64,000 nt of DNA, from assembly GCF_013122565.1 (NCBI RefSeq), contig NZ_CP053258.1. The stretch is one strand, 5' to 3'. The DNA comes from Escherichia coli (GTDB lineage: Bacteria; Pseudomonadota; Gammaproteobacteria; Enterobacterales; Enterobacteriaceae). Within the stretch, counting starts at the first letter, position 1, and each line of letters opens with the position of its first letter. This document shows, piece after piece, positions 60,001-63,000 of the stretch. A program made the position numbers.

Positions 60001-63000
60001 ATGCTATTTCCGACCTGACACCTGTGTGAATTGTTCACGTATTTTTTCGCTATGTCTTACTCTCTGCTGGCAGGAAAAAATGGTTACTATCAATACGGAA
60101 TCTGCTTTAACGCCACGTTCTTTGCGGGATACGCGGCGTATGAATATGTTTGTTTCGGTAGCTGCTGCGGTCGCAGGATTGTTATTTGGTCTTGATATCG
60201 GCGTAATCGCCGGAGCGTTGCCGTTCATTACCGATCACTTTGTGCTGACCAGTCGTTTGCAGGAATGGGTGGTCAGTAGCATGATGCTCGGCGCAGCAAT
60301 TGGTGCGCTGTTTAATGGTTGGCTGTCGTTCCGCCTGGGGCGTAAATACAGCCTGATGGCGGGGGCCATCCTGTTTGTGCTCGGCTCGATAGGGTCCGCT
60401 TTTGCGACCAGCGTAGAGATGTTAATCGCCGCTCGTGTGGTGCTGGGCATTGCTGTCGGGATCGCCTCTTACACCGCTCCTCTGTATCTTTCTGAAATGG
60501 CAAGTGAAAACGTTCGCGGTAAGATGATCAGTATGTACCAGTTGATGGTCACACTCGGCATCGTGCTGGCGTTTTTATCCGATACAGCGTTCAGTTATAG
60601 CGGTAACTGGCGCGCAATGTTGGGGGTTCTTGCCTTACCGGCAGTCCTGCTGATTATTCTGGTGGTCTTCCTGCCAAATAGCCCGCGCTGGCTGGCGGAA
60701 AAGGGGCGTCATATTGAGGCGGAAGAAGTGTTGCGTATGCTGCGCGATACGTCGGAAAAAGCGCGAGAAGAACTCAACGAAATTCGTGAAAGCCTGAAGT
60801 TAAAACAGGGCGGTTGGGCACTGTTTAAGATCAACCGTAACGTCCGTCGTGCTGTGTTTCTCGGTATGTTGTTGCAGGCGATGCAGCAGTTTACCGGTAT
60901 GAACATCATCATGTACTACGCGCCGCGTATCTTCAAAATGGCGGGCTTTACGACCACAGAACAACAGATGATTGCGACTCTGGTCGTGGGACTGACCTTT
61001 ATGTTCGCGACCTTCATTGCGGTCTTTACGGTAGATAAAGCAGGTCGTAAACCGGCTCTGAAAATTGGTTTCAGCGTGATGGCGTTAGGCACTCTGGTGC
61101 TGGGCTATTGCCTGATGCAGTTTGATAACGGTACGGCTTCCAGTGGCTTGTCCTGGCTCTCTGTTGGCATGACGATGATGTGTATTGCCGGTTATGCGAT
61201 GAGCGCCGCGCCAGTGGTGTGGATCCTGTGCTCTGAAATTCAGCCGCTGAAATGCCGCGATTTTGGCATCACCTGCTCAACGACGACAAACTGGGTGTCG
61301 AATATGATTATCGGCGCGACCTTCCTGACGCTGCTCGACAGCATTGGCGCTGCCGGTACGTTCTGGCTCTACACTGCGCTGAACATTGCGTTTGTGGGCA
61401 TCACTTTCTGGCTCATTCCGGAAACCAAAAATGTCACCCTGGAACATATCGAACGCAAACTGATGGCAGGCGAGAAGTTGAGAAATATCGGCGTCTGATT
61501 TCACGGGCCGGATGTGCTGTACATCCGGCCCTTTTTTCGTTAATAGAGATTGGGCACCTGGCCGTTGAGGCGTTTGTCTCGTTCCTTATTCAGCCTTGTT
61601 GCGGTAACACACATCAGGAGAGAGGAATGAAAACAATTGGTTTGCTGGGAGGAATGAGCTGGGAATCCACCATTCCTTACTATCGTCTGATAAATGAAGG
61701 CATTAAACAGCGGCTTGGTGGGCTTCACTCTGCGCAAGTGCTGCTACATAGCGTCGATTTTCATGAAATAGAAGAGTGCCAGCGTCGCGGGGAATGGGAT
61801 AAAACCGGGGACATTCTGGCTGAGGCGGCGCTTGGCTTACAGCGGGCGGGCGCAGAAGGCATTGTGTTATGTACCAATACGATGCATAAAGTGGCGGATG
61901 CCATTGAGTCTCGTTGCTCTCTGCCTTTCTTACATATAGCGGATGCCACCGGACGTGCAATTACTGGGGCAGGAATGACTCGTGTGGCGCTGCTGGGTAC
62001 GCGTTACACCATGGAACAGGATTTTTATCGCGGGCGGTTGACGGAACAATTTTCCATCAACTGTCTTATTCCTGAAGCGGATGAACGGGCGAAGATTAAT
62101 CAGATTATTTTTGAAGAACTGTGTCTGGGGCAATTTACCGAAGCGTCACGCACTTATTATGCGCAAGTGATTGCTCGCCTGGCAGAACAGGGCGCACAGG
62201 GCGTCATTTTTGGCTGCACAGAAATTGGTTTATTGGTGCCAGAAGAGCGCAGTGTTTTGCCTGTGTTTGATACCGCGGCGATCCATGCCGAGGATGCTGT
62301 CGCTTTTATGCTGTCGTAGCTGACGACAAAATCGCGTCAAGAGAAGTGACCAGTTTCGGTAAACCCGCTTGTAAATGCTCACTAAACGCCTGCACTAGCG
62401 CTGATGACGGGCGATGCAGAGGGCGGATCAGGCTGACGGTAAACGGAACCGCAATACTGAACCGCCGCACCACTAAACCGCTTGCCGCATAATCCAGTGC
62501 GGTGAGCGGGTTAACCACCGAAACACCTACCCCCGCCCGTACCATTGCGCAGACTGACGCGGCGCTGTGGGTTTCTACGATCATGCGTCGTTTAACCTGA
62601 TGTTCAGTAAATAGCTGATCCAGCAACTGGCGATAGCTGTCAGTACGGGAAAGGCTGATGTAGTTCTCACCCTGAAAATCATCCGGCGTTAATACCTTTT
62701 TTACCGCCAGCGGATGACCCGGAGGTAACACACACACTTCATCTAAAGAGAGTAATTCGGTACGTTCTGTTCCCGCAGGCGTATGGAGCGTCTCAGTGAA
62801 CCCTAAATCATGACGCTGGGCCGAGAGCCACTCTTCAAGTAGCGGTGATTCCTGGGGCACGATATTTAAGCTGACATCGGGATAACGTGCCAGAAAGGGT
62901 TGCAGGAGCTGCGGTAAAAAAGATTGCGAAAAGACTGGCAGGCAGGCAATAGACAGTTCTCCCTGGCGAAACTCGCGCAGACTTTCTGCTGCGCTGACAA

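Follow-up and report, generated by a model that had tools for sequence, protein, structure and literature searches.

The convergent genes ygeA and lysR of Escherichia coli share 14 coding nucleotides at their 3′ ends, and both stop codons lie inside the shared stretch. The sequence analyzed here, called the window, is the whole stretch of 64,000 nucleotides from contig NZ_CP053258.1 (assembly GCF_013122565.1). The overlap is real and is already annotated in RefSeq. It is most likely incidental, arising where two convergent genes are packed closely together; in this reading, Rho ends the transcripts inside the partner gene and no dedicated element is involved. The features at and around the junction are listed in Table 1. 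The araE, ygeA and lysR genes and the start of lysA make up the final 4 kb of the window.

Table 1. Features at and around the ygeA-lysR junction, in window coordinates
Feature	Position	Strand	Remarks
araE	60080-61498	+	
araE intrinsic terminator	61505-61537	+	12-bp GC-rich stem and T-run, upstream of ygeA; consensus scan
ygeA coding sequence	61627-62319	+	PLP-independent amino-acid racemase, 230 aa; TAG stop at 62317-62319; RefSeq annotation
C-rich, G-poor stretch	62166-62305	-	140 nt, C/G 1.5-1.7; directly downstream of the lysR stop, antisense to ygeA
Direct repeat ATGCTGTCG, 9 nt	62294-62302 and 62308-62316	+	Two copies 14 nt apart
YgeA Phe227-Met228 codons, TTT ATG	62305-62310	+	Reverse complement holds the lysR stop
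Shared stretch TTATGCTGTCGTAG, 14 nt	62306-62319		Common to ygeA and lysR; both stop codons inside
lysR coding sequence	62306-63241	-	LysR-type regulator of lysA, 311 aa; TAA stop at 62306-62308; RefSeq annotation
LysR codon 306, TCG (Ser)	62324-62326	-	
13-bp hairpin	62478-62509	+	No U-tract; 159-190 nt past the ygeA stop, inside lysR codons 245-255
lysA	from 63363	+	Start only in the window

The codon layout of both genes was read from the sequence. The ygeA frame begins with the ATG at 61627 and runs for 230 codons to the end ...TTT ATG CTG TCG TAG. On the minus strand, the 311-codon open reading frame of lysR ends with ...TCG TCA GCT ACG ACA GCA TAA. With the frames read in this manner, the positions given for the two stop codons in the initial annotation proved to be exact, and its claim that the ygeA stop lies 14 nt inside the coding end of lysR was confirmed; the RefSeq annotation is identical. 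On the YgeA side, the shared nucleotides comprise the last two bases of the Phe227 codon followed by M-L-S-stop. On the LysR side, they comprise the last base of the Ala308 codon followed by T-T-A-stop. The phase of the overlap is 123:132. The two are a convergent overlapping protein-coding pair, that is, two genuine genes on opposite strands whose 3′ ends and stop codons share nucleotides.

Both products were assigned to known protein families. YgeA matches the NCBIfam model NF007569 over residues 1-230 of 230 with 512 bits (equivalog cut-off 417), as well as the Pfam family Asp_Glu_race, and residues 1-230 are matched by the E. coli YgeA crystal structures PDB 5HQT, 5ELL and 5ELM. LysR matches NCBIfam NF008239 over model positions 1-308 of 309 with 590 bits (equivalog cut-off 288). 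It contains the Pfam domains HTH_1 and LysR_substrate. The model of the latter, the substrate-binding domain, ends at residue 293 of 311, and the six-residue tail SSATTA at the end of LysR lies beyond it.

The same 14-nt overlap is present in the RefSeq annotation of five E. coli genomes (TB06052, EC21Z-151, K-12 MG1655, 23CRST011 and O157:H7 Z1814). In K-12 MG1655, lysR is at 2979021..2979956 on the plus strand and ygeA at 2979943..2980635 on the minus strand. The overlap has stood in the annotation of E. coli K-12 for decades. Across the ygeA-lysR stretch, the window is collinear with both TB06052 and K-12. The 1.9-kb region was found in 5,423 of the 5,426 complete E. coli genomes at 95-99% identity (5,422 with at least 80% coverage), and an 81-nt probe centered on the junction was likewise matched at ≥96% identity in 5,423 of them. 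The non-overlapping junction of the E. whittamii type was detected in none of the 5,426 genomes by megablast with a 28-nt exact word, a search that covers near-identical alleles only. An IS200 insertion in EC21Z-151 was considered as a change of the junction and was rejected, as it is positioned beside the araE terminator, off the junction.

The stop-to-stop geometry was measured in 80 species-level LysR loci taken from Enterobacteriaceae genomes. Overlaps of 4-29 nt were found in 50 of the 80 loci: 4 nt in 11 species, 6 nt in 5, 9 nt in 2, 14 nt in 20, 23 nt in 4 and 29 nt in 8. A gap of 1-8 nt separates the genes in 9 species and a gap of 62-235 nt in 4. An insert of more than 1 kb lies between lysR and ygeA in 13 species (Buttiauxella, Cedecea and relatives), and no convergent ygeA was present within the flank in the remaining 4. 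The two genes are separated by no more than 8 nt in 59 of the 63 direct junctions. Across these loci, the conserved trait is the absence of a terminator-sized spacer, and the length of 14 nt is not conserved.

Within Escherichia, the overlap is split from the gap by TCG or TAG at LysR codon 306, together with nearby substitutions. E. albertii, E. whittamii and three further non-coli Escherichia lineages carry TAG at this codon; in these lineages, LysR has 305 aa, six residues fewer, and a 4-nt gap replaces the overlap. Since other Escherichia lineages stop at codon 306, the six overlapping LysR residues SSATTA appear to be dispensable. The lysR stop itself is complementary to three bases of ygeA, namely the second and third of the Phe codon and the A of the following ATG. 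In this phase, TT[T/C]ATG always gives TAA or TGA on the opposite strand. Therefore, the Phe-Met of YgeA sets a fixed stop in the lysR frame. Among the 20 species with the 14-nt overlap, 17 have the lysR stop within TTTATG or TTCATG. The block ACGACAGCATAAA, which is the reverse complement of the conserved YgeA C-terminus F-M-L-S-stop, was near-invariant in a junction alignment of 14 sequences (12 of 13 columns invariant). The overall pattern fits stop codons being gained and lost neutrally in two variable tails where the spacer has disappeared.

Our preferred explanation is as follows. The ygeA and lysR genes have been tail-to-tail neighbors with practically no spacer throughout the Enterobacteriaceae, and the geometry of their junction would depend on the chance placement of stop codons in the two C-terminal tails, which are variable and dispensable. 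The E. coli lysR frame runs six codons (SSATTA) beyond the stop of the sister Escherichia and ends at the TAA opposite the YgeA Phe-Met, which gives the 14 nt. A terminator does not fit between the genes, so that both transcripts have to end within the partner gene. The lysR RNA, untranslated after its stop, would expose a C-rich and G-poor stretch, and Rho terminates transcription approximately 130 nt into ygeA, as published bicyclomycin data show for K-12. The ygeA transcripts, partly derived from araE read-through, would enter lysR and most likely end by Rho or by polymerase collision. The two RNAs would thus be complementary over roughly 100 nt or more; as both genes are expressed weakly, this probably has little influence on their expression.

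The initial annotation had stated that the transcripts of the two genes must overlap antisense at their 3′ ends. Since each properly translated mRNA must contain its own stop codon, the antisense overlap covers at least positions 62306-62319, and transcripts ending before this stretch would be non-stop mRNAs. RNA-seq at the junction, which had been suggested as a check, is already published for MG1655, and transcript overlap was seen: lysR-ygeA is among the 165 convergent excludons detected in at least 50% of 58 MG1655 RNA-seq datasets (ExcludonFinder, NAR 2025, PMC12288877). Thus, the antisense transcript overlap is supported by the overlap of the coding sequences, by the published excludon listing and by the Rho data described below, and it too is already published.

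The pair differs in some respects from the other entries of this excludome, in which the neighboring galR-lysA junction is also listed (PMC12288877). The pairs mostly have an intergenic region (mean 95 nt), whereas the coding sequences of lysR and ygeA themselves overlap. In 146 of the 165 pairs, a predicted terminator lies inside the transcription unit of the neighbor, whereas no terminator-like site was found for lysR-ygeA. The convergent E. coli pair mscL-arfA is also in the excludome. Its 3′ antisense overlap is reported to regulate expression (PMC10070815); mscL-arfA has experimental evidence of antisense crosstalk, whereas lysR-ygeA is known as a catalogue entry.

The end of the lysR transcript is documented in K-12. 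Adams et al. 2021 (PMC7815308, Supplementary file 2) report a Rho termination region on the lysR strand (plus in K-12), with a peak at K-12 2,980,090 that lies 134 nt past the lysR stop and is classed as antisense to ygeA. Across this region, coverage drops from 73 to 17 in the absence of bicyclomycin and from 146 to only 129 in its presence. The Rho score is 3.79 (p = 1.8e-6); as it is calculated from comparison windows of 800 nt, the position of the peak is approximate. By collinearity with K-12, the peak corresponds to position ~62172 of the window, which is contained in the C-rich stretch directly downstream of the lysR stop (Table 1). By composition, the RNA after the lysR stop is C-rich and G-poor, a feature of Rho terminators. 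Because the Rho region lies 134 nt past the stop, the transcripts in reality overlap over far more than 14 nt. The lysR strand is therefore like the Rho-terminated transcripts of that study, with a bicyclomycin-sensitive drop inside ygeA and C-rich RNA after the stop. Rho termination is documented for the lysR-strand side, whereas for the ygeA-strand side we infer it.

On the ygeA strand, the araE terminator was the sole strong intrinsic-terminator-like site near the junction in the consensus scan. The scan detected no sigma-70-like promoter on the plus strand between this terminator and ygeA. In K-12, coverage is equal across the araE stop (41 vs 44). In Salmonella, ygeA is reported to be induced 7-fold by arabinose and to be approximately 50% co-transcribed with araE, the co-transcription being cited second-hand. 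We consider that ygeA is transcribed at least partly by read-through of the araE terminator.

The best C/G peak of the ygeA strand (1.94) is located 141-220 nt past the ygeA stop, and the 13-bp hairpin lies within it. The hairpin has a dG of -24.2 kcal/mol, with z -6.0 on the plus strand vs z -2.3 on the minus strand. It can be formed in 77% (77.4%) of the pair cells over 79 distinct sequences, compared with 75.6% for shuffled pairing, and covariation is marginal. The pairing is conserved mostly because the LysR codons (N-P-L-T-A-L-D-Y-A-x-S-G) are conserved. As a selected RNA element, the hairpin was rejected on these two grounds, the explanation of the pairing by LysR codons and the marginal covariation, and it stays a candidate only. 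Possibly, it may serve as the stable 3′ end of the ygeA read-through RNA after Rho termination.

Some observations count against the incidental reading, namely the close spacing in 59 of the 63 direct junctions, the fixation of the overlap allele in E. coli, and the synteny of excludon pairs, which are more syntenic than other neighbors according to ExcludonFinder (PMC12288877). The tight junction, the fixed allele and the excludon synteny could instead reflect selection for transcriptional coupling. In this alternative, lysR-ygeA would be a selected convergent excludon, in which arabinose-driven araE-ygeA transcription lowers LysR, and hence lysA activation, by interference and by RNase III cleavage of the duplex. 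We regard this as unlikely. The pair does appear in the published E. coli excludome, but the validation by p19 capture of double-stranded RNA failed for convergent pairs and is uninformative for them (PMC12288877). The tight junction is kept in most Enterobacteriaceae; however, neither the length nor the sequence of the overlap is conserved, and the 13 species with the >1-kb insert and the 4 species without ygeA at this place depart from it altogether. Arabinose induces ygeA in Salmonella, where part of its transcription is shared with araE, whereas the main text of the Salmonella arabinose RNA-seq paper makes no mention of lysR or lysA. According to the literature, YgeA is a racemase of broad spectrum that needs no PLP and acts on homoserine in vivo, so that both genes touch aspartate-family amino-acid metabolism, but the read coverage in LB is low for both ygeA and lysR. 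A regulatory role of the pair as an excludon, if real, would add another case of a known mechanism.

In a further reading, the spacer-free junction would be kept so that, when arabinose is present, read-through from araE into ygeA brings polymerases and antisense RNA to the 3′ third of lysR, lowering LysR and lysA activation, and the hairpin at 62478-62509 would mark the stable 3′ end of the antisense RNA. This is quite improbable. If true, the availability of arabinose would be linked to lysine biosynthesis across pathways.

We also searched for structural elements at the junction. The consensus scan detected no intrinsic-terminator-like site after the ygeA stop or the lysR stop, and no inverted repeats of ≥7 nt were present in 62000-62700. 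A bidirectional intrinsic terminator, with a GC-rich hairpin between an A-tract and a U-tract, was not found at the gene boundary. Folding of the junction was no better than that of shuffled sequences on either strand (z -0.19 and -0.75). No Rfam family was found at the junction, and the only match, GABA3, was sub-threshold (22 vs 57 bits) and located inside ygeA off the junction. The curated table of Adams et al. 2021 (PMC7815308) contains no Term-seq 3′ end for ygeA or lysR. A 6-bp palindrome across the ygeA stop (TGTCGT-AGCTG-ACGACA, 62312-62328) was rejected as an element; it folds like shuffles and is gone in other Escherichia lineages.

These results bear on another explanation, that a structured RNA in the coding sequence, either a cryptic bidirectional terminator or the hairpin at 62478-62509, defines the 3′ ends and that the overlap accommodates the structure. 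There is a precedent, as 21 of the 58 convergent overlaps of E. coli have a Rho-independent terminator inside the partner gene (PMC2174442); at this junction, however, neither stop is followed by a terminator-like site and the junction folds like shuffles. The hairpin is very stable on the ygeA strand, strand-asymmetric, located in a C-rich region and formable in 77% of the pair cells over the 79 sequences, but it has no U-tract, its pairing hardly exceeds the shuffled value, its covariation is only marginal and no Term-seq 3′ end of either gene is in the curated table. We judge this explanation to be very improbable. The last alternative, an annotation artefact in which one C-terminus is untranslated and there is hence no true coding overlap, deserves almost no credence: the NCBIfam model does stop short of the last three LysR residues, and sister Escherichia lineages lack the tail, but being dispensable does not make a tail untranslated, stop codons are unambiguous, unlike starts, both frames are open to their stops, and the YgeA crystal constructs match residues 1-230.

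As an incidental overlap, the ygeA-lysR junction is a typical member of its class. Lillo and Krakauer 2007 (PMC2174442) counted 58 convergent overlaps of coding sequences in E. coli, and 123:132 is the most frequent phase among those of ≥5 nt. The ygeA-lysR overlap resembles them in being a short 3′ overlap in this phase, and nothing substantive sets it apart. The annotated region equivalent to the window has seven convergent junctions, with gaps of 40, 39, 70, 17, 148 and 6 nt in addition to the ygeA-lysR overlap; thus, one of the seven overlaps. The overlap is unremarkable in frequency, and the stop positions are facts and not a statistical call.

The coding overlap, the transcript overlap and the Rho termination of the lysR RNA inside ygeA are all already known and hold no surprise for a specialist. 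The junction matters little except as a neat example of the origin and drift of short convergent overlaps. This example rests on the range from an 8-nt gap to a 29-nt overlap, on the nonsense-codon toggle within Escherichia and on the Phe-Met of the partner as a fixed stop.

A change of the junction was seen in a single E. coli strain, 2013C-3181, which carries a 14-nt tandem duplication, CGACAGCATAAAAG. The duplication arose between the two copies of ATGCTGTCG. It extends the overlap to 18 nt and adds six residues to YgeA, and LysR is unaltered.

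The end of ygeA (window 62294-62316) carries two copies of a 9-nt direct repeat, ATGCTGTCG, placed 14 nt apart. The copies are translated in two different frames, giving D-A-V in one case and M-L-S in the other. A tandem duplication of 14 nt between them was detected in one of approximately 5,400 E. coli strains, 2013C-3181, where YgeA is extended by six residues and the overlap of ygeA with the convergent lysR becomes 18 nt.

On the plus strand, a very stable hairpin of 13 bp (dG -24.2, z -6.0) was found at window 62478-62509, antisense to lysR codons 245-255. Since it contains two G·U pairs, the hairpin is strand-asymmetric. 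It is able to form across most Enterobacteriaceae, and this is explained mainly by the conserved codons.

Upstream of ygeA, Adams et al. (PMC7815308) reported a Term-seq 3' end of high abundance, with about 36,600 reads, at K-12 position 2,980,766 on the minus strand, which corresponds to window 61496. The araE stop codon begins at this base, which lies about 40 nt upstream of the RNA release expected from the canonical araE terminator hairpin (61505-61537). In the same report, the intrinsic-terminator score of this end was low (1.35), and the end was not Rho-dependent. It may be a processing site. In one strain, E. coli EC21Z-151, an IS200/IS605 tnpA gene has inserted downstream of the araE terminator hairpin and ahead of ygeA (see table). 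This insertion would cut ygeA off from read-through of araE.

The next convergent junction, lysA/galR, is located just past the 3' end of the window, and its gap is only 6 nt. This junction is also spacer-free; thus, the lysA-lysR block has a spacer-free convergent junction on each side. The lysA/galR junction is likewise included in the published excludon list (PMC12288877), and a Rho termination region running antisense to lysA has been published for it, at K-12 2,978,071.

Features adjoining the ygeA/lysR region
Feature	Sequence and coordinates	Remark
IS200/IS605 tnpA	L002 (EC21Z-151) 682-1140	equivalent window position about 61540-61600
lysA/galR junction	sequence L085 14687-14694; K-12 2977630-2977637	convergent

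For window 61500-63400, the closest of 5,426 complete E. coli genomes was only 98.6% identical over 1.9 kb, and the LysR of the window is identical to that of TB06052, a Galapagos freshwater isolate. By these two comparisons, the E. coli lineage of the window is probably an uncommon one. No canonical E. coli representative was present among the best 80 genome contig matches.

The window also contains the ETT2 type III secretion island, placed at about 29,600-50,000 by collinearity with sequence L084. Its genes include eivF, sctC, sctN, sctT and a prgH-like gene, through ygeH/ygeG. The region is collinear with that of TB06052, in which several ETT2 genes are annotated as pseudogenes, including a frameshifted YscQ-family gene and ygeH with an internal stop.
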